Below, piece after piece: positions 2,005 to 58,847 of a stretch of DNA of 64,000 bases; position 1 is the first letter of the stretch, and every line of letters begins with the position of its first letter. Made by a program: the position numbers and the translations under genes. Below the pieces are notes generated by a model. The model was not told the DNA's origin. It was given only the letters and a program-made list of their open reading frames with translations, and did not search any database. The stretch comes from an uncultured Bacilli bacterium (GTDB lineage: Bacteria; Bacillota_I; Bacilli_A; RF39; UBA660): the NCBI GenBank assembly GCA_934149105.1, contig CAKPDP010000002.1, positions 49,700 through 113,699 of the forward strand, given 5' to 3'.

Positions 2005-3417
2005 CTAAATATTCTTAATATCCCTCTTTTTAAATATAACAAATATAGTTAAAAATAGCAATAGAAAATGAATAATATATACTATCATAGAATTTACAAT
2101 TGTTACATCTACATACTTATTTAAATTACCATTTATGTAGGTCAAGAAGTCCCAATTACTAAAGATTAAATACTTAGTTATAGAATATTTACTTAAGAGA
2201 GTTAATAGAGGGTTAGACATAGTGTAAAGGCTTAGAGTAAATAATGAAGAGAAGATAGAATTTAAAAAGATGGTACTTAAAGCAAAACTAAGAGTAAGAA
2301 TTAGAATTAACTTTGGTAAAGATATGAATATTCTTAAAAACATATAGATATAGAGAGGATATTCTCTTAAAGATTTTAAGTTAAAATCATATACTACTAT
2401 AGGGATTTTCAAACTATCAATTTTAAAGATTAGACTACCTACCCATAATTCACTTATAATTAAGAAAATAATAGAGAGCAAAAGAATTATTATACAAGTT
2501 AAATATTTGCTTAAAATAATTTGAGTTCTAGAATAAGGCTTTATTAGTAGTTGTTTAATAGTTCTTTTAGAGTACTCTTCACTAATAATACTAGAAGAAA
2601 TAAAAATTATAATGATAACTAAAAATAGTTCATAATCTTCAACGATTGTTTTAAGGCACCCTCTAAGATCATTTTCTTTATTGATATTTTGCTTGGTAGT
2701 TATTATATATTTGGATAGTTGCTGTTCTTCTTTTAAATTATTAAAAGTTATTTTTTCTTCATAAGTGTAAGGAGTCGAGAGATTATTTAATTTTTGAGAA
2801 GATTGGTAATAGCCTTCTACCGCTTCATTTAAATAGGTAGTGCTATAATTAATATTATTTTTTATTCTTAAAGATAAGACTTCTTTTTGTAATAATAATT
2901 CTTTATTTTGAGGATCAACTTCTAAATCAGATTTTATTTTATCTAAATCTTGATTAATAAAATAGATATTATCATTTTGAGTAAATTTTTCTCGATACTT
3001 ATTATAAAGTTCTTGATAAGAAGCTTCTTTTAGGGAATCTGGTTCTTTATATTTATAATAATTGAGGTTATAGACGATATCATAAAAATAGTTATTTACA
3101 GTATTATATTGAAAGGAATTTGGAGGATAACTTATTTTTAATTTTAATAGGTCTAAATCAGTTAAAAGAGAAATATATTCTGAACTGTCTTGATTTAAGC
3201 CTTTTAACTTAGTTTCTAAAGCTTTAATTTCTTCCTTAGAAGTATCTTTATCATTTAGATAAAGACCATCAGTGGTGTAAGTAGTTTTATAGAGAATATT
3301 ATTTAAAACTAAAAATAATAACATAATTAGATAGAGAATATAGATCGCTTTTTTATGAAATATCTTATATAATTCATTAGTAATTAAATTAATCATTAGA
3401 GATTCCCGTCCTTTCAA
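2005..3417 (-). CDS. ABC-2 type transporter permease with a large extracytoplasmic loop
   Basis: N-terminal TM helix, a hydrophilic domain of about 250 aa, then 5-6 C-terminal TM helices; translationally coupled to the upstream ABC ATPase. Confidence 0.5.
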   Translation of the reverse strand: MKGRESLMINLITNELYKIFHKKAIYILYLIMLLFLVLNNILYKTTYTTDGLYLNDKDTSKEEIKALETKLKGLNQDSSEYISLLTDLDLLKLKISYPPNSFQYNTVNNYFYDIVYNLNYYKYKEPDSLKEASYQELYNKYREKFTQNDNIYFINQDLDKIKSDLEVDPQNKELLLQKEVLSLRIKNNINYSTTYLNEAVEGYYQSSQKLNNLSTPYTYEEKITFNNLKEEQQLSKYIITTKQNINKENDLRGCLKTIVEDYELFLVIIIIFISSSIISEEYSKRTIKQLLIKPYSRTQIILSKYLTCIIILLLSIIFLIISELWVGSLIFKIDSLKIPIVVYDFNLKSLREYPLYIYMFLRIFISLPKLILILTLSFALSTIFLNSIFSSLFTLSLYTMSNPLLTLLSKYSITKYLIFSNWDFLTYINGNLNKYVDVTIVNSMIVYIIHFLLLFLTIFVIFKKRDIKNI

Positions 3418-4267
3418 AGAATAATTGTTCTAAAGAAGATGTTTCTTTACTTATTTCATATATTTTGATGTTGTTATCTAAAAGAATTTTTAGTACTTGA
3501 TTTAAATTAGTATTATTTTTTACTAGGATAGTATTTTGATTAAGAATATTTAAGTTATAATTAGTTAAGTTTCGGCTGTCATCTACTTTAATTAGATAAT
3601 TGTTATTAAAAGCTTCTTTAAGAGAAGTATTATATAGTAACTTGCCATTTTTTATTAAACAAATATTGGTACAGAAAGTTTCTAATTCACTTAAAATATG
3701 ACTAGAGATTAGGATTGCTTTCTTTTGAGTTTGGGCTAAATTCAAAAGTAAATTTCGGATATCTTTTACACCTTGAGGATCGAGTCCATTAAAGGGTTCA
3801 TCTAATATTAGTAATTTAGGATCAGGGACTAGGGCTAGAGCGATTCCTAGGCGACCACGCATTCCTAGAGAATAAGTAGTTACTTTATTATGAATACTTT
3901 TTTCTAAGCCTACTAATTTTACAATTTCATTTAATTTATCTATAGAAACGTTATATAGTCTAGAGGCTAAGAGAAGATTTTGAAAGCCTGTTAAATACAT
4001 GTAGGTATCTGGTTCTTCGATGATAGCCCCAACTTCTTGGATAGCTTTTTTATAATTTTTAGTAATACTATTATTATTAATTAGGACAGTACCACCAGTT
4101 ATTTTAGTAAGTCCTAAAATCATTTTGATAATAGTAGTTTTACCAGCTCCATTAGGTCCAATAAAACCTAATATTTCTCCTTCAGAAATAGAAAAGGAAA
4201 CATTCTTAATAATCTCTTCTTTCTTTATTATTTTTACTAGATTACTACACTCTAATATTTTAGTCAT
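3389..4267 (-). CDS. ABC transporter ATP-binding protein
   Basis: Walker A GPNGAGKTT, signature YSLGMRGR, Walker B LLILDEP; start is probably the internal Met (MTKILE), which follows a GGAGG ribosome-binding site. Confidence 0.8.
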   Translation of the reverse strand: MTKILECSNLVKIIKKEEIIKNVSFSISEGEILGFIGPNGAGKTTIIKMILGLTKITGGTVLINNNSITKNYKKAIQEVGAIIEEPDTYMYLTGFQNLLLASRLYNVSIDKLNEIVKLVGLEKSIHNKVTTYSLGMRGRLGIALALVPDPKLLILDEPFNGLDPQGVKDIRNLLLNLAQTQKKAILISSHILSELETFCTNICLIKNGKLLYNTSLKEAFNNNYLIKVDDSRNLTNYNLNILNQNTILVKNNTNLNQVLKILLDNNIKIYEISKETSSLEQLFFERTGISND

Positions 4268-4283
4268 AGAAAACCTCCTCAAT

Positions 4284-7628: not shown

Positions 7629-7705
7629 TGGTAGCGAGAGGGGGATTTGAACCCTCGACACCGCGGGTATGAACCGCGTGCTCTAGCCAACTGAGCTATC
7701 TCGCC
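7629..7705 (-). tRNA. tRNA-Met, elongator type, anticodon CAT (tRNA-Ile2 not excluded)
   Basis: Reverse complement gives GGCGAGATAGCTCAGTTGGCTAGAGCACGCGGTTCATACCCGCGGTGTCGAGGGTTCAAATCCCCCTCTCGCTACCA; anticodon loop TTCATAC; T-loop GGTTCAAATCC; encoded CCA. Confidence 0.8.
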
Positions 7706-50484: not shown

Positions 50485-50560
50485 TGGTGCTGGAGACAGG
50501 ATTTGAACCTGCGACCTACGCGTTACGAGTGCGTTGCTCTACCAACTAAGCTACTCCAGC
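50485..50560 (-). tRNA. tRNA-Thr (anticodon CGT)
   Basis: Reverse complement GCTGGAGTAGCTTAGTTGGTAGAGCAACGCACTCGTAACGCGTAGGTCGCAGGTTCAAATCCTGTCTCCAGCACCA; perfect 7 bp acceptor stem; anticodon loop CTCGTAA. Confidence 0.85.
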
Positions 50561-50718: not shown

Positions 50719-51288
50719 CTAAACAAACATATACTTTTTTCTGTTAGTTGTAACTTCTTCTTTTTCTACATTATTGTCGTAACCTTCTTTTAGGCAAACT
50801 TGATTTTTAGATAAACTTTTAGGAACATCAATTACTCTTTGATTTTTAGAGCCCCTAAATTTTACATCAAAACTTTTTTCTTTAAGAATAAATTTACCAT
50901 CAATTAGAACATCAATATTTGATAGTAAATCCATTATTTCTGGCTTGTTTTTAGATAATTTTAATAATTCTTCATAAGTAAAGCCCGTATAACACCAAAC
51001 ATTGAGACCTATTTCATGACAATACCTAGCTATTTCAGCACATTCTTTAGCTTGAAACATAGGATCACCACCGGATAAAGTTATTCCATCTTGGCCTTCT
51101 AAAGATTTTATTTTATCTTTTATTTTGTCAACATCAACAAGGTAGCCAGCGGTAAAGGAATGGGTAGTAGGATTATGACAACCTTCACAATTATGGGAAC
51201 ATCCTTGCGTCCAAATAACACTTCTTATTCCTTCACCGTCGACAACACTATCTCTTTGAATATCGGTAGTGGCTAATCTTATTTGCAT
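50719..51288 (-). CDS. nrdG: Anaerobic ribonucleoside-triphosphate reductase activating protein (radical SAM)
   Basis: CSHNCEGCHNP CxxxCxxC cluster motif; position directly downstream of nrdD. Confidence 0.85.
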   Translation of the reverse strand: MQIRLATTDIQRDSVVDGEGIRSVIWTQGCSHNCEGCHNPTTHSFTAGYLVDVDKIKDKIKSLEGQDGITLSGGDPMFQAKECAEIARYCHEIGLNVWCYTGFTYEELLKLSKNKPEIMDLLSNIDVLIDGKFILKEKSFDVKFRGSKNQRVIDVPKSLSKNQVCLKEGYDNNVEKEEVTTNRKKYMFV

Positions 51289-51461
51289 TATTTTTCAATA
51301 ATTCCTTCAAGGCCGTGTTTTACTCTATCTCTTTCTTCGGCTCTTTTTCCGTTGTTGAATTTATCAACAGTTCCTACTAGGTAACCAGTTATTCTTCTTA
51401 TTCTTTCAAAACCTACTCCCTCACCTATTTTCTTTTCTTCTTTAAAACTTTCTTCACGCAT
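51288..51461 (-). CDS. Separate small ORF carrying the NrdD C-terminal glycyl-radical motif
   Basis: RIRRITGYLVGTVDKFNNGKRAEERDRVKH matches the class III RNR glycyl radical region RVCGYLG...NxGKxxEV..RVKH; AAAGGAGAG RBS 7 nt before the internal ATG (MREESF). Confidence 0.5.
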   Translation of the reverse strand: MREESFKEEKKIGEGVGFERIRRITGYLVGTVDKFNNGKRAEERDRVKHGLEGIIEK

Positions 51462-51493
51462 TTTTATCTCTCCTTTTAACACTTTTATTTATA

Positions 51494-53782
51494 TTATTGA
51501 CATTTACATTCATTATATTTTTCAACGGTTATTCCTTCTCCAGTATGACGACCACAGCCTGGACAAACATCGCCAATTACTCCTACATATCCACAAACAG
51601 GATCTCTATCAACTGGATGGTTAATTGCACAATAACCCATGTTGTTTTCTTTCATAATTCTTACTATCTTTTCAAAAGCTTCTAAGTTATTAGTTGTATC
51701 TCCATCTAATTCAATATAACTAATATGACCGGCATTAGTTAATTCATGATATGGAGCTTCTTTTTTAATCTTATTGACAATAGAAATATTGTAGTAGACA
51801 GGGACATGGAAAGAATTTGTATAGTAAGCTCTATCTGTTACACCTTTAATTTTGCCATAGATTGCTTTGTCTAATCCAGTGAAACGGCCCGATAAACCTT
51901 CGGCTGGAGTAGCTAGACAAGTAAAGTTTAGGTTATATTTTTCAGAATATTCATCACATCTAGTACGCATAAATTTGATTATTTTTAAACCTAGTTCTTG
52001 GGCTTCATCACTTTCACCATGATGTTTACCAATCAAGGCTTTTAGACATTCAGCTAGGCCAATGAAACCAATACTTAAAGTTCCATGTTTTAAGACTTTT
52101 CTCAATCTATCAGTTGGTTTTAATTTTTCACTATCAATCCAAACCCCTTGTTCTAATAAGAAAGGAAAATTATAAGTTCTTTTATTGCATTGGATTTCAA
52201 ATCTTTCTAATAATTGATCTTTTACTAAATCCATTAAATCAGATAATTCCTCAAAAAAGCCATCTAAATCTGTCTTATCATTGGTAACAATACCATGTTT
52301 TATTCCTAATCTTACTAAGTTAATAGTAGTGAAAGATAAATTTCCACGTCCAGGTGTTACAGCTTTATTAGGATCAACTACATTTCCCATTACTCTAGTA
52401 CGGCAGCCCATATAGCATACTTCAGTATTATAGTCGCCTTTATAATATTGTTTATTGAAAGGAGCATCCATGAAAGAAAAGTTAGGGAATAATCTCTTAG
52501 CAGATACTTTGCAAGATAATTTAAATAAATCATAGTTAGGATCCCCTGGATTATAATTAGTTCCTTCTTTTACTTTAAAAATAGAAATTGGGAAAATTGG
52601 AGTTTCATGATGTCCCAAACCATTATCTAAGGCTAAAAGATAATTTTTCATAACCATTCTTCCTTCTGGAGAAGTATCAGTTCCAAAGTTTATAGATGAA
52701 AATGGAACTTGGGCTCCTGCTCTAGAATGCATAGTATTTAGATTATGAATAAAAGCTTCCATAGCTTGATAAGTATCACGATTAGTCTTAGCCATAGCAG
52801 TATCATATGATTTAGTGAAAATCTTTTTTAATTCACCATTTTCTTTATAAAAACTTTCAAATTTTGAGATATCAAATTCAATACTTGTTAATTTATCGAC
52901 TTCTTTGGCAACTTTATCCATATTAACAAAATCAATAAATTCTGTAAAATCTAATAGTTCATAAATAGCTTGTTTGAATTGCTTTTTGAAGGTTTTTAAG
53001 ACACCCGGTGCTAAGTAATAATCAAAGGCTGGTATACTTTGACCACCATGTTGATCATTTTGGTTGGATTGAATTGCTATAGCGGCTAAGGCACTGTAAG
53101 AGGTTATAGAATTTGGTTCTCTTAGGTGACCATGTCCGGTAGAAAAACCACCTTTAAATAATTTATTTAAATCTATTTGCATACAAGTAGTTGTTCCCAT
53201 TGGCATAAAATCCATATCATGAATATGAATATCACCATCATCGTGTGCATCAGCAAATTTCTTTTTCATTAGATAATCTTTAGAAAACTCACGAGAAACA
53301 GTTGAACCATATTGAAGCATAGTTCCCATAGCAGAATTTCCATCAATGTTAGCATTTTCTCTTTTGGCATCTTCTTCAATTGCCGATTTCATTCCTAAGT
53401 TTTCTAGTGATTTTAAGAATTTATGCATTCTTTTTTCATCTGCAAAAACTAATCTAGATTGAGCTCTTCTTTCACGATATTCAGAAAAAGATTTGAAAAC
53501 ATCTTCATATTTTCCTTTTAATAAAGCATCTTCAATTAAATCTTGAATTTCTTCTATTTTTATTTTTTCGGCATCCTTATAATCTTTTTCTATTCTTTTT
53601 AAAACAGTTTGGTAAACTTTTTGAATATCTTTTTCACTGTATTTATTAATTTCACTTTCAGTATTTTCAACACTATCAAAGCCTTTTTTAATAGCCATAG
53701 CTATTTTAGCTCCATCAAAATCTACTTTTCTTCCATTTCGTTTTACTACTTTTAATGTAGTTATTTCTTCTATATTTATCAT
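51494..53782 (-). CDS. nrdD: Anaerobic ribonucleoside-triphosphate reductase catalytic subunit (class III), ending just after the zinc ribbon
   Basis: N-terminal ATP-cone VVKRNGRKVDFDGAKIAMAIKK; core class III RNR; C-terminal CGYVGVIGDVCPGCG Zn ribbon; stops before the glycyl-radical segment. Confidence 0.9.
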   Translation of the reverse strand: MINIEEITTLKVVKRNGRKVDFDGAKIAMAIKKGFDSVENTESEINKYSEKDIQKVYQTVLKRIEKDYKDAEKIKIEEIQDLIEDALLKGKYEDVFKSFSEYRERRAQSRLVFADEKRMHKFLKSLENLGMKSAIEEDAKRENANIDGNSAMGTMLQYGSTVSREFSKDYLMKKKFADAHDDGDIHIHDMDFMPMGTTTCMQIDLNKLFKGGFSTGHGHLREPNSITSYSALAAIAIQSNQNDQHGGQSIPAFDYYLAPGVLKTFKKQFKQAIYELLDFTEFIDFVNMDKVAKEVDKLTSIEFDISKFESFYKENGELKKIFTKSYDTAMAKTNRDTYQAMEAFIHNLNTMHSRAGAQVPFSSINFGTDTSPEGRMVMKNYLLALDNGLGHHETPIFPISIFKVKEGTNYNPGDPNYDLFKLSCKVSAKRLFPNFSFMDAPFNKQYYKGDYNTEVCYMGCRTRVMGNVVDPNKAVTPGRGNLSFTTINLVRLGIKHGIVTNDKTDLDGFFEELSDLMDLVKDQLLERFEIQCNKRTYNFPFLLEQGVWIDSEKLKPTDRLRKVLKHGTLSIGFIGLAECLKALIGKHHGESDEAQELGLKIIKFMRTRCDEYSEKYNLNFTCLATPAEGLSGRFTGLDKAIYGKIKGVTDRAYYTNSFHVPVYYNISIVNKIKKEAPYHELTNAGHISYIELDGDTTNNLEAFEKIVRIMKENNMGYCAINHPVDRDPVCGYVGVIGDVCPGCGRHTGEGITVEKYNECKCQ

Positions 53783-54228
53783 TTTACACTCCTCTACTAA
53801 ATTTCTGATTTAATTATAACATCTGAAATATAAAAGTCAATACTTTTTGTTCGCTTTTATCTTTTTTACTTTTGATTTTTTAAGCTTTTTTTAATAAAAT
53901 GACAATCCCTTATTTTTAAAGGATCGCCATTTTTAAAATGTTTTTTCAATAATTATCAGAGAGAGTATTTTGGAGTTATTCCTTTATTTTATATGGTTTT
54001 ATCATTATTTACATCAATTTTACAGTCTGAATATTTTAGGAGTAATTTTGAATTTTAGAAAAATTATAAATTTTAAAAATAATATTTTTTAAATAATTTT
54101 ATTTTGATGATAGTGTTCGCTTTTTGATAATATTTCACTAGTTAATTATATTGGATAAAGCCTCTATATTAACATTATTTTCTAAGATTAAACTAGAGGT
54201 TTTTTCGAACAGGAAGAAAAAAAGGTTA

Positions 54229-54283
54229 GAAAGGAAAAAAAGAAGAAGCCAATATTATCTGGAGACTTCTTCTTTATACAGTT
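54229..54283 (-). terminator. Terminator hairpin (aaagaagaag/cttcttcttt) overlapping the pflA stop codon, with a T-run
   Basis: 10 bp inverted repeat around the stop codon, followed by T7 on the minus strand. Confidence 0.5.
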
Positions 54284-54983
54284 TCATAAAACTAGCAAAT
54301 AATTTATCACATTCTTCTTTATCCATGGCCGGTAAATTTTTATAGCAATAGTCTAGTCCTAATTTTTTATACTTTTCAACCCCAAGGGTATGGTATGGGA
54401 GAAAAGTTATATTTTCAATATTTTTTATTTGTTTTAAGAATTTAGCTAAGCCTTGGATATAGGTATTATTATCCATTTGACCTGGAACAATTACTTGCCT
54501 TATCCAAACTTTTTTACCAGATCTATTTAAAGCTTCAATAAACTTTAGACTTTCATCCATGGTATGAGAAGTTAGATCTAGATAAGCTTCTTTGGTTATT
54601 TGTTTGATATCAAAGAGAACGAGATCAACATATTTTAGTATTTCATCATAATTACCAGTTCCAACACCACAGGTATCTAAGGCAATATGAATATTTTCTT
54701 GTTTTAAGATTTTAGATGTTTCAATAATAAATTCACTTTGGAGTAGTGGCTCACCCCCTGAGAAGGTTACTCCCCCACTATTTCTTGTAAAATAAGGTTT
54801 GTTACGAATTATCTTTTTAGCTAATTCTTCGGGAGTGGTATTAAGTTCTTGAAGATGCCACATTTCAGGGTTATGGCAATATTTACATCTTAATTGGCAG
54901 CCATTTAGGAAAACAACAGTGCGAATCCCTGGACCATCAACAAGTCCAAAGGATTCAATAGAATTAACAGAACCTTTAGTCAT
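54255..54983 (-). CDS. pflA: Pyruvate formate-lyase activating enzyme
   Basis: CQLRCKYCHNPE radical-SAM motif; 242 aa; immediately downstream of pflB. Confidence 0.9.
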   Translation of the reverse strand: MTKGSVNSIESFGLVDGPGIRTVVFLNGCQLRCKYCHNPEMWHLQELNTTPEELAKKIIRNKPYFTRNSGGVTFSGGEPLLQSEFIIETSKILKQENIHIALDTCGVGTGNYDEILKYVDLVLFDIKQITKEAYLDLTSHTMDESLKFIEALNRSGKKVWIRQVIVPGQMDNNTYIQGLAKFLKQIKNIENITFLPYHTLGVEKYKKLGLDYCYKNLPAMDKEECDKLFASFMKLYKEEVSR

Positions 54984-57220
54984 TACATTTTATCATGGAA
55001 GGTTCTAGAAATTACTTCTTCTTGTTGTTTTCTAGTTAATTTATTAAATCTTACAGCATAACCTGATACTCTTATAGTTAATAATGGATATTTATCAGGA
55101 TTATTCATAGCGTCAATTAACACTTCACGATTTAAAACATTGACATTTAGGTGGTGTGCTCCCTGAACAAAGTAACCATCTAGTAAAGAAACTAAATTTT
55201 CTATTTGTTGTGATTTATCAGTTCCTAAAGAATTTGGTACTATGGAGAAGGTGTTGGAAATACCATCTTTGCAGCAACTACCATATTCTAATTTAGCTAC
55301 GGAATTTAATGAGGCAATGGCACCACTTTCATCTCTTCCATGCATTGGATTAGCACCAGGAGCGAAAGGAACACCAGCTTTTCTGCCATCAGGAGTACTA
55401 CCAGTTTTAGCTCCATATACGACATTAGAAGTAATCGTTAATACAGATAGAGTTGTTTCGGCATTTCGATAAGTTTTATGACTTTTTAGAGCTGTAAAGA
55501 TTTTTTCAAGGATTTCTTTAGCAATATCGTCTACTCTATCATCATCATTACCATATTTAGGGAAGTCACCTTCAATTTCAAAATCAATGGCCATGCCTTC
55601 TTCATTACGAATAGGTTTTACTTTAGCATATTTAATAGCGGATAAGGAATCACAGGCTACAGAAAGGCCTGCTACTCCGTAAGCCATATATCTATGAACA
55701 TCAGTATCATGTAAAGCCATTTGACCAGCTTCATAAGCATATTTATCATGCATATAGTGAATTATATTCATGGCGTCACTATAAACTTTAGCTACTTTAT
55801 CCAGAACATTAAAGTAAGCTTTTTTAACGGTTTCATAATCTAAATACTCATCAGTTATTTTAGGAACATTATCAAAAACTTTAACATTTTTCATTTCATC
55901 GATACCACCATTAATGGCATATAATAATGATTTAGCAAGATTACAACGTGCTCCAAAGAATTGCATATCTTTACCAATACGCATAGCTGAAACACAGCAC
56001 GCTATGGCATAATCATTACCATATATTGGACGCATAATATCATCATTTTCATATTGAATAGCATCAGTATCGATAGACATTTTAGCACAATATTTCTTCC
56101 AATTTTCTGGTAATTTAGTACTCCAAAGGATAGTCATATTAGGTTCTGGGGAAGTATTTAAATTAGTTAGAGTATTGACAATACGATAAGATGTTTTGGT
56201 TACCATATTTTTACCAGACTCAGATATTCCTCCTAGGGAACAAGTAACCCAAGTAGGATCTCCTGTAAATAATTCATCATATTCAGGAGTTCTTAGATGT
56301 CTAACCATACGTAATTTAATAACAAAATTATCGATCATTTCTTGAGCTTCAGCTTCGGTTATTAAACCAGCTTCTAGATCTCTAGTGATATAAATATCAA
56401 AGAAATCATCGACACGACCTAGACTCATAGCGGCTCCATTATTTTCTTTTACGGCTGCTAAGTAAGCAAAATAAGTCCATTGAATAGCTTCTTTAGCAGT
56501 AGTAGCGGGTTTACTAATATCAAAGCCATACTTACTAGCCATTTTCTTTATTTCATCTAGGGCTCTATATTGCATAGATATTTCTTCACGGATACGAATT
56601 AATTCTTCAGACATATCACCATTAGATTGATAGCCATATTCCCATTCATTTTTTTTCTGTTCCATTAAGTAATCAATACCATATAAGGCTACACGACGAT
56701 AGTCACCAATAATTCTACCACGGCCGTAGGCATCTGGTAATCCTGTTAATAGACCAACATGTCTAGCAGTTCTAATTTCTTTAGTATAAGCATCAAAAAC
56801 ACCTTGGTTATGAGTCTTTCTAAAAGCATTAAAATATTTATCAACTTCAGGATTCATTTTATAGCCATAAGCATCTAATTCTTGGTAAACCATTCTAATA
56901 CCACCATAAGGGTTAATTATTCTTTTAAAGGGAGCATCAGTCTGTAAACCAACAATTACATCATCATCTTCACAGATATAACCTGGTTCAAAATTATTAA
57001 TACCAGACATGTTATCGACATCAATATCTAAAACATGTTTTTTAGCTTCTTCTTGATATAATTCTTCATATTTGTCGGCAATTTTCTTAGTTTTAGCAGT
57101 TGGTCCTACTAAAAATGTTTCATCACCTTCATAAGGAGTATAGTTTTTCATAATGAAATCTTTAACATTAATTTCATTACACCATTCTCCTTCTGTAAAA
57201 TTTTTCCATTCTTCTCTCAT
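54983..57220 (-). CDS. pflB: Formate C-acetyltransferase (pyruvate formate-lyase)
   Basis: 745 aa; C-terminal glycyl radical motif RVSGYAV; active-site CC dyad ([12 protein letters not shown]). Confidence 0.95.
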
Positions 57221-58773: not shown

Positions 58774-58847
58774 TGGCAGGGGATGAGAGAATCGAACTCC
58801 CAACAGTGGTTTTGGAGACCATTATTATACCATTTAACTAATCCCCT
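58774..58847 (-). tRNA. tRNA-Trp (anticodon CCA)
   Basis: Reverse complement AGGGGATTAGTTAAATGGTATAATAATGGTCTCCAAAACCACTGTTGGGAGTTCGATTCTCTCATCCCCTGCCA; perfect acceptor stem; anticodon loop CTCCAAA. Confidence 0.85.

Follow-up and report, generated by a model that had tools for sequence, protein, structure and literature searches.

Class III ribonucleotide reductases (RNRs) are textbook glycyl radical enzymes, with the radical domain in the catalytic chain. In the window, by which we mean the whole 64-kb stretch of DNA that was analysed (64,000 nucleotides of contig CAKPDP010000002.1, from an uncultured Bacilli bacterium), the class III RNR gene nrdD ends without its glycyl-radical loop, and the loop is encoded by a separate open reading frame (ORF) of 57 amino acids (aa) that is followed by the activase gene nrdG. 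This split, with a Shine-Dalgarno site belonging to the small ORF, had been proposed from the DNA letters alone (the sequence-only reading) and is confirmed here, on the minus strand. The layout described there was correct and only the spacings needed adjustment: the gap between the ORFs is 32 nucleotides (nt) and not 30, and the Shine-Dalgarno site lies 6 nt and not 7 nt from the ATG. The features of the locus, in the direction of transcription, are listed below.

53813..53840, minus strand: promoter-like site 30 nt before the nrdD start codon, TTGACT-16 nt-TATAAT, its -10 element extended by TG
51494..53782, minus strand: nrdD large subunit, 762 aa, with ATP-cone, ten-stranded barrel core and zinc site and without the glycyl-radical loop
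53462..53752, minus strand: ATP-cone (allosteric activity site), large-subunit residues 11-107 (PF03477, E=1.4e-15)
51548..51619, minus strand: zinc-site segment HPVDRDPVCGYVGVIGDVCPGCGR, large-subunit residues 722-745, aligning to Prevotella copri (P. copri) NrdD residues ~680-706
51518..51541, minus strand: large-subunit linker copy GEGITVEK, residues 748-755 (family profile, n=80)
51497..51517, minus strand: variable large-subunit C-terminal tail YNECKCQ, ending in Cys-x-Cys; the tails of relatives differ
51462..51493, minus strand: intergenic spacer, 32 nt, with the Shine-Dalgarno site, the stop at which the small frame opens and three more stops in frame 0
51288..51461, minus strand: small subunit, 57 aa, MREESFKEEKKIGEGVGFERIRRITGYLVGTVDKFNNGKRAEERDRVKHGLEGIIEK, comprising the glycyl-radical loop, C-terminal helix and tail of NrdD
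51402..51425, minus strand: small-subunit linker copy GEGVGFER, residues 13-20 (family profile, n=81)
51381..51404, minus strand: glycyl-radical motif RIRRITGY, small-subunit residues 20-27, with the Gly26 codon GGT at 51386-51384
50719..51288, minus strand: nrdG, radical-SAM activase, 189 aa (TIGR02491, 149.7 bits against a cut-off of 126.1)

The 762-aa ORF ends in ...CPGCGRHTGEGITVEKYNECKCQ*, just past the zinc site. It matches the ATP-cone and NRDD models of Pfam (NRDD, PF13597, E=1.2e-189, profile positions 1-531 of 562) and the NCBIfam equivalog model NF005497 (1010.9 bits against a cut-off of 764, profile positions 3-714 of 746). In Pfam and NCBIfam profile searches the small ORF, which runs from the ATG at 51461 to a stop codon at 51290-51288, matches only the last ~33 positions of NrdD models (NF005497, positions 711-744 of 746, E=1.8e-11; NF011292, positions 585-617 of 618, E=6e-12; Pfam NRDD, positions 533-562 of 562). 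The NrdD match of the small ORF is far stronger than chance would give and covers precisely the part that the large ORF lacks, and the two ORFs together tile the NrdD models end to end; the zinc-site segment, which is the first half of the glycyl radical domain, is kept on the large subunit. Family models, active-site residues and the adjacent nrdG all place the system within class III NrdD. The RxxGY glycyl motif that is otherwise a criterion for this class is found on the 57-aa ORF and not on the barrel polypeptide.

The Shine-Dalgarno site AAAGGAGAG (51476-51468) precedes the small-ORF ATG, and at the other end the nrdG ATG shares the last base of the small-ORF stop codon in a TAATG overlap. 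In the direction of transcription, the TAA of the large frame (51496-51494) comes before the TAA (51491-51489) with which the small frame opens, and frame 0 contains four stops before the ATG. Given this order of the two stops, no single frameshift can join both ORFs. The promoter-like site upstream of nrdD has 11 of 12 consensus matches and is the best in the region, as a consensus match only, and a scan of the region found no promoter-like or terminator-like site between the large ORF, the small ORF and nrdG.

Active-site residues and the position of the cut

The closest solved structure is that of P. copri NrdD (Protein Data Bank (PDB) entry 8P23), which is the best PDB match to the large ORF (E=3e-177). 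Residues 11-747 of the large subunit align to 8P23 residues 8-706, and residues 19-49 of the small subunit to 708-738 (PDB chain index). The glycyl radical domain of the P. copri enzyme spans residues 676-739 and consists of a structural zinc site, a buried loop carrying Gly711, a short helix and an extended tail (PMC11226230). Because both ORFs tile P. copri NrdD, the split runs through the glycyl radical domain; the zinc site remains on the barrel piece, and the Gly loop, helix and tail make up the small subunit.

In a residue-level alignment, numbered as in 8P23 (PMC11226230), the large subunit keeps the thiyl-radical cysteine Cys416 (MGCRTR), Cys171 (TTTC), Glu581 (TPAEG) and the NxN flap (RENAN), together with Asn435 instead of a third cysteine, as is characteristic of the formate-dependent type. 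Gly26 and Tyr27 of the small subunit correspond to P. copri Gly711 and Tyr712, and the position of Arg719 is occupied by Lys34 in the window and by arginine in most homologs. In the P. copri structure, a hydrogen bond links Tyr712 to Glu581, and Arg719 is in contact with the flap (PMC11226230).

The motif RIRRITGY is invariant in 31 aligned small proteins (alignment A1), as are Gly13, Gly15, Gly17, Phe18, Glu19 and Arg20, and Glu14 and Val16 are at least 90% conserved. Among 150 more divergent small proteins, Phe18, Arg20, Arg23, Thr25, Gly26, Tyr27, Leu28, Gly30, Asn36 and Glu42 are invariant, and Arg22 and Ile24 are conserved in at least 90%. No required residue is missing, and the two chains together thus contain every part that a working class III RNR needs.

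An AlphaFold2 model of the small subunit alone, built on 150 homologs, has a predicted local distance difference test (pLDDT) score of 55 and contains one short helix at residues 37-44, which corresponds to the P. copri helix 723-730. The model hints that the small subunit may lack a stable autonomous fold and may fold on docking.

Two further observations concern cysteines. Throughout this NrdD subfamily, fused and split, the first of the four zinc-site cysteines (NRCLDCGY...CPKC in P. copri) has become aspartate (DRDPVCGY), and the zinc site in the window (HPVDRDPVCGY...CPGCGR, 51548-51619) has three cysteines left; Asp727 or His722 is a possible fourth zinc ligand. The large-subunit tails, which vary from ~8 to 45 residues across clades, end in CxC or CC in many cases, with cysteine pairs such as CKCQ, NSCNC, NCCK, TCCGR, CDCR and CGCE, and some small-subunit tails are likewise cysteine-paired (KTCC, ECAC, CSCSE, TTCC). 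C-terminal redox cysteine pairs are a feature of class I and class II RNRs, which these tails recall.

Conservation of the split and its origin

The comparison covered 81 loci, namely the best 80 of at least 595 GTDB-species stretches (one genome per species) and the near-identical metagenomic locus L001. In 79 of the 81, an nrdD ORF that includes the zinc site comes to its end before a short ORF that carries the radical motif; L075 is also split according to its ORF listing, and L070 is a special case with an unlinked small gene. The sequence-only reading had pointed to nrdD in relatives as the comparison to make, and these relatives, far from being uniformly fused, show the same split. The genomes range from 25 to 66% GC, belong to Bacilli and Clostridia and include metagenome-assembled genomes (MAGs) labelled Bacilli, 'Tenericutes', Erysipelotrichaceae, Oscillospiraceae and Lachnospiraceae. 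The cultured species Agathobaculum hominis, Merdimmobilis hominis and Massiliimalia timonensis have the split, and Clostridium sp. CAG:417 is also in the set. Among the genome loci the small protein is at best 77% identical to that of the window, and the closest relatives are gut MAGs labelled 'Bacilli bacterium' and 'uncultured Tenericutes'.

The spacer between the large and small ORFs varies from 1 to 174 nt across the related loci, and all three relative frames are present. In most of these loci a purine-rich, GGAG/GAGG-type Shine-Dalgarno-like site precedes the ATG of the small ORF, and no other spacer sequence is conserved among them. In 72 of the 81 loci nrdG comes immediately after the small ORF. 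NrdG is 158-197 aa long in split systems, and no diagnostic feature was seen in it, the fused comparators being few.

The exact 57-aa small protein occurs on 100 contigs and the exact 762-aa large protein on 56. A word-indexed search retrieved more than 120 free-standing homologs of the small protein, 53-83 aa long and 74-100% identical. An exhaustive HMMER search of 1.84 billion cluster representatives gave 2058 matches, 652 of them at E<=1e-10, and the best 150 clusters (50% identity) are all free-standing proteins of 45-196 aa. In the gapless 37-codon core of the small ORF, the Nei-Gojobori ratio of nonsynonymous to synonymous differences (pN/pS) is 0.12 and the corresponding ratio of substitution rates (dN/dS), from unsaturated pairs, is ~0.08; mean identity to the window in this core is 90% for amino acids and 42% for third codon positions. 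The small ORF is under strong purifying selection. Homologs of the large subunit (best 120 clusters) are 82-100% identical and 758-769 aa long, except for two entries of 711 and 727 aa.

Two irregular cases were noticed. In L005 (CP091726.1, the 1.46-Mb chromosome of a 'Bacilli bacterium' MAG), the nrdD-large ORF upstream of the small gene is just 488 aa long and nrdG was not detected immediately downstream of the small gene; the short large ORF could reflect an interruption or a sequencing error in this one MAG. The 175-aa cluster representative P0252 carries the small-subunit sequence followed by the C-terminal 130 residues of the large subunit; the order is circularly permuted, and the sequence is probably a chimera produced by assembly or gene calling.

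The origin of the split is indicated by fused relatives. A chimeric query of 92 aa, in which the zinc site was joined to the small subunit, retrieved 120 proteins, all of them fused, with 65-80% identity and 82-100% query coverage, from Clostridia, Oscillospiraceae, Synergistaceae and Kiritimatiellia metagenome bins. In the 117 that match a strict CxxC[GH]R pattern, and in which the linker was therefore measured (the remaining three are fused too), a single linker of 8-11 residues, typically x-E-x-D-G-V-x-F-E, connects CxxCGR to RIRRITGY. In the split systems, both pieces carry a copy of the linker that is colinear with this single one, as seen in the profiles and in alignment A3 (19 paired concatenations, four fused viral NrdDs and unpaired rows from the loci). 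At positions +3 to +10 after CxxCGR, the large-subunit profile (n=80) reads Gly 74%, Glu 96%, Gly 56%, Val/Ile 100%, Ser/Pro, Val/Ile/Leu, Glu 84% and Arg/Lys 88%; before RIRRITGY, the small-subunit profile (n=81) reads Gly 100%, Glu 75%, Gly 95%, Val 94%, Gly 89%, Phe 100% and Glu 94%, then Arg. Relative to fused NrdD, ~15 residues have been added as a tail of the large piece and ~18 as a head of the small piece.

The sequence-only reading had described the two facing ends as diverged duplicates of about 27 nt. The window's two segments agree at 17 of 27 positions by our own count, which is weak when taken alone, and it is the family-wide profiles on both pieces that bear the duplication out. 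The comparison of split and fused linkers gives good support to the view that a linker of 8 residues (G-E-G-V-x-hydrophobic-E-R/K), located between the zinc site and the Gly loop, was duplicated and that the split originated in this way. Because both copies are still conserved, both are implied to be functional. On a speculative view, the two copies help to dock the large and small pieces, and they may do so by strand pairing, an attractive idea that draws on homology and guesswork.

Small genes away from nrdD

A scan of IMG/VR with a profile of the small protein found 61 viral loci. In 47 of these, a short ORF with the radical motif has no tblastn match to NrdD-large or NrdG within 3.5 kb; stand-alone examples, which fall within L082-L140, are L110:3474-3623, L091:3510-3662 and L096:3495-3629. 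NrdD-large lies nearby in about 14 of the 61, which include five ordinary fused genes (769-799 aa), one bacterial-type split and several interrupted genes. Four stand-alone loci were compared with PHROGs, and three of them have phage hallmark genes close by: a large terminase in L102, a major tail protein in L124, and a small terminase, an exonuclease and a phosphoadenosine phosphosulfate (PAPS)-reductase-like gene in L110. The fourth, L099, matched only PHROG families of unknown function.

The viral small proteins have two forms. The short form (44-62 aa) has a GxGVGFE head like that of the bacterial subunit. In the long form (88-123 aa, e.g. L124:3348-3614), a conserved N-terminal domain replaces the GEGVGF head, with the consensus M.VEVIGG.I...E..AYI......I.KI.I..DGDFVDL....PF.RIRRITGY; it was found in L101-L103, L107, L112, L120-L125, L127-L129, L132 and L139. 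The N-terminal domain has no Pfam match, the only Pfam match of the long form being to the NrdD C-terminus, and PHROGs gave one marginal match, to the unknown-function family phrog_36074 (E=0.009). Among deposited phage genomes, the matches are restricted to unannotated fecal 'Bacteriophage sp.' and to Clostridioides difficile phages with fused nrdD. These viral copies indicate that the radical peptide is apparently used as a separable module, and the stand-alone viral small gene may represent a new kind of auxiliary metabolic gene, the NrdD counterpart of T4 Y06I and GrcA.

In L113, L114, L117, L118, L134 and L141, the tblastn matches to NrdD-large fall into two separated blocks, which in L113 cover NrdD-large residues 197-460 and 460-754 and lie ~1 kb apart. 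This pattern suggests insertions such as introns or homing endonucleases, as in cultured phages.

A bacterial small gene away from nrdD was observed in L070, a Candidatus Crickella equi MAG, in which it lies at 3501-3662 with no nrdD within 3.5 kb. It is flanked, as judged by eye, by a 226-aa ORF resembling a Crp/Fnr-type regulator (2808-3488) and a 195-aa rubrerythrin-like ORF (3683-4270), a setting that may be related to oxygen stress.

Around the nrd operon of the window, genes for pyruvate formate-lyase (PFL; 745 aa, intact PF01228) and its activase (242 aa) lie directly upstream, at 54255-57220 on the minus strand; because the glycyl radical domain of PFL is intact, the other glycyl radical enzyme of the organism is not split. 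No riboswitch was found in the window, in which the Rfam matches are three tRNA genes only, all on the minus strand (50488-50560, 7632-7705 and 58777-58847), one of them ~160 nt downstream of nrdG. No NrdR box was seen by eye upstream of nrdD.

A probable two-piece reductase and its alternatives

The locus is best explained as an operon of promoter, nrdD-large, small ORF and nrdG, in which the catalytic polypeptide appears to be naturally split inside the glycyl radical domain and the 57-aa small subunit would be translated independently from its own ribosome-binding site. Judged from sequence comparison, the products very probably form a functional two-piece, formate-type class III RNR with the radical on a separate small subunit. 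The sequence-only reading had also favored a functional two-piece enzyme, and that preference is upheld by the split in nearly all related loci, the free-standing clusters, the purifying selection and the Shine-Dalgarno-like sites.

In the proposed mechanism, NrdG with S-adenosylmethionine would abstract hydrogen from Gly26 of the small subunit, and the peptide would place its Gly loop in the large-subunit barrel beside the finger-loop cysteine. As it does in the fused enzyme of P. copri, the C-terminal part of the small subunit, with its helix and tail, would cover both the barrel top and the NxN flap, and the radical would then pass from glycine to cysteine to substrate, as in any NrdD. GrcA restores formate production in vivo to the PflB G734A variant (PMC12338860), and PFL activase can place the radical on a peptide of only seven residues (PMC13450708); action in trans is therefore plausible.

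The system can be set against several known ones. The fused NrdD/NrdG systems (P. copri 8P23; phage T4 1H78/1H79; PDB 9D3X) have the same domains in the same order, the same formate-type residues and the same operon logic. The split system differs from them in being cut between the zinc site and the Gly loop, in carrying the radical glycine on a 57-aa protein with its own start and in having a duplicated 8-residue linker.

Split RNRs are known in other classes, as class II NrdJa/NrdJb in Pseudomonas aeruginosa and Thermus phage phiYS40 and as class I alpha-a/alpha-b in Aeromonas phage Aeh1. Like NrdJa/NrdJb, the present system has its catalytic component in two consecutive ORFs a few nucleotides apart, an arrangement conserved in a clade; unlike those of NrdJa/NrdJb and Aeh1, it belongs to another RNR class and is cut at another point, and their pieces include no short peptide bearing a stable radical.

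In phages, the nrdD coding sequence may likewise be in more than one piece, because of a group I intron in T4 and by fragmentation in Aeromonas phage phiAS4 (PMC3653736). The phage genes are interrupted, in single phages, by introns or homing endonucleases or by breaks without explanation, and the interruptions are spliced or of unknown function, whereas the split nrdD described here has no intervening element and its two products are conserved as separate proteins.

The likeness to GrcA/YfiD of Escherichia coli is one of mechanism. Both are small, free-standing proteins with a glycyl-radical loop that act, or in the present case would act, in trans on a large barrel; the small subunit is presumably activated by its partner's activase, and phage-encoded versions of both exist. 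T4 Y06I is a phage-encoded autonomous glycyl radical cofactor for PFL. The small ORF matches only PF13597, with no PF01228 match at E<=0.01, and is thus not homologous to GrcA; its product is about half the size of GrcA and has no predicted autonomous fold, and in the 79 split loci the adjacent large subunit lacks a glycyl loop of its own. The comparison with GrcA made in the sequence-only reading therefore holds as a mechanistic analogy, and it fails as homology and as a spare-part role, because the small protein is derived from NrdD and its partner has no loop to replace.

A true spare part in the manner of GrcA would require a complete NrdD elsewhere in the genome, which the peptide would rescue after cleavage by oxygen, with the truncated large ORF mimicking the cleaved form. 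GrcA does this for PFL, the phage-borne and unlinked small genes show that separate deployment is possible, and a second nrdD could lie elsewhere, the scope here being the window and the loci. This explanation is nevertheless unlikely, in view of the position of the small gene between a loop-less large gene and nrdG in 79 of the 81 loci, which is the layout of a stoichiometric operon, of the high conservation of the large subunit, which is not that of a decaying copy, and of the absence of a fused nrdD from both the 64-kb window and the 7-kb loci compared with it. Because the partner large ORF lacks the glycyl loop, the peptide is taken to be an obligate subunit and not a spare part.

It is very unlikely that the large protein is no longer based on a glycyl radical, having another radical source or a role outside ribonucleotide reduction, with the small ORF regulatory or vestigial. 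Aminoacyl radical enzymes offer an example of unusual radical sites in the glycyl radical superfamily (PMC11528403). The radical motif is complete in the small proteins, as is the set of residues in contact with the network of flap and substrate (Arg20, Arg23, Thr25, Gly26 and Tyr27, invariant among the 150 homologs); nrdG is retained and translationally coupled to the small ORF, and neither the thiyl cysteine nor the formate-type active site has been lost from the large subunit.

Programmed recoding, by which a frameshift, read-through or ribosomal bypass would yield a single fused NrdD, is known in other bacterial and phage genes, and the two ORFs are close enough together to bring it to mind. 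It is extremely improbable in view of the order of the stops, with four in frame 0 before the ATG, of the variable spacers, which occur in all three frames without a conserved sequence other than the Shine-Dalgarno site, and of the small genes that are found away from nrdD in L070 and alone in the 47 viral loci.

A sequencing or assembly error, or a recent pseudogene, created by a frameshift or indel in an ordinary fused nrdD would explain why the pieces are adjacent, in different frames and 32 nt apart, but has a vanishingly small chance of being correct given that the exact proteins recur on independent contigs, that loci from different species are split with differing spacers and frames, that the small ORF has a dN/dS of ~0.08, that a Shine-Dalgarno site and an ATG have evolved ahead of it, and that the duplicated linker is conserved on both pieces. 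The frameshift or pseudogene that the sequence-only reading had kept as its alternative is thus ruled out; more generally, the contigs, the conservation of the locus and the selection data together exclude assembly error, pseudogene and programmed recoding.

Some points weigh against a functional two-piece enzyme as set out above. An AlphaFold2 model of the concatenated large and small subunits has a mean pLDDT of only 57.8 and a predicted template modelling (pTM) score of 0.47; its alignment was shallow, with large-subunit homologs that are all at least 82% identical, and MAFFT placed the heads of the small proteins on the large-subunit tail. A neighbor-joining tree of 70 aa requires nine changes between the split and fused states, compared with 49 for shuffled labels, so that the states are clustered without clean monophyly, and a tree of this kind does not settle on a single origin of the split. 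The word 'obligate' describes the subunit at this locus; the cell itself may have a second, fused nrdD or an RNR of another class elsewhere in its genome.

The radical glycine is the site at which oxygen cleaves glycyl radical enzymes. Because the radical glycine of the two-piece enzyme is on a separate peptide, oxygen would destroy a 6.6-kDa peptide instead of an 88-kDa enzyme, and one hypothesis is that a cheaply replaceable radical carrier confers an advantage in the economy of repair; the bacterial data fit a neutral split that went to fixation just as well. The more elaborate proposal, that the small subunit is a consumable 'radical cartridge' which is charged by NrdG and docks into the large subunit, and that phages supply cartridges to recharge or boost the host enzyme, is tentative and somewhat less likely than not.

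According to a 2026 review, spare-part proteins are known for no glycyl radical enzymes other than formate lyases. In the open-access literature, including broad RNR phylogenies and reviews, no description of a class III RNR split at the glycyl loop was found, and Pfam, NCBIfam and PHROGs contain no model dedicated to the small protein. It therefore appears that this literature has no account of a class III RNR whose radical site is on a small subunit of its own, a form widespread in gut Bacillota, and no prior description was found there of the small gene carried alone by gut phages. If the proposal is true, this would be the first glycyl radical enzyme with an obligately separate radical subunit and the first NrdD-type counterpart of the PFL-GrcA and T4 Y06I system.

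The split form is common in uncultured gut Bacilli (RF39-like, Erysipelotrichaceae) and in Oscillospiraceae, and automatic annotation therefore calls a 'complete' NrdD without a radical site in these groups and overlooks the small gene. The finding touches on how the buried radical domain leaves the barrel to reach the activase and on how glycyl radical enzymes cope with irreversible cleavage of the whole protein by oxygen. A natural radical peptide of 57 residues would be a minimal and chemically tractable substrate for NrdG, with which activation and docking could be separated experimentally, and with it one could ask directly whether a radical carrier that is cheap to replace serves as an adaptation to transient oxygen in the gut.

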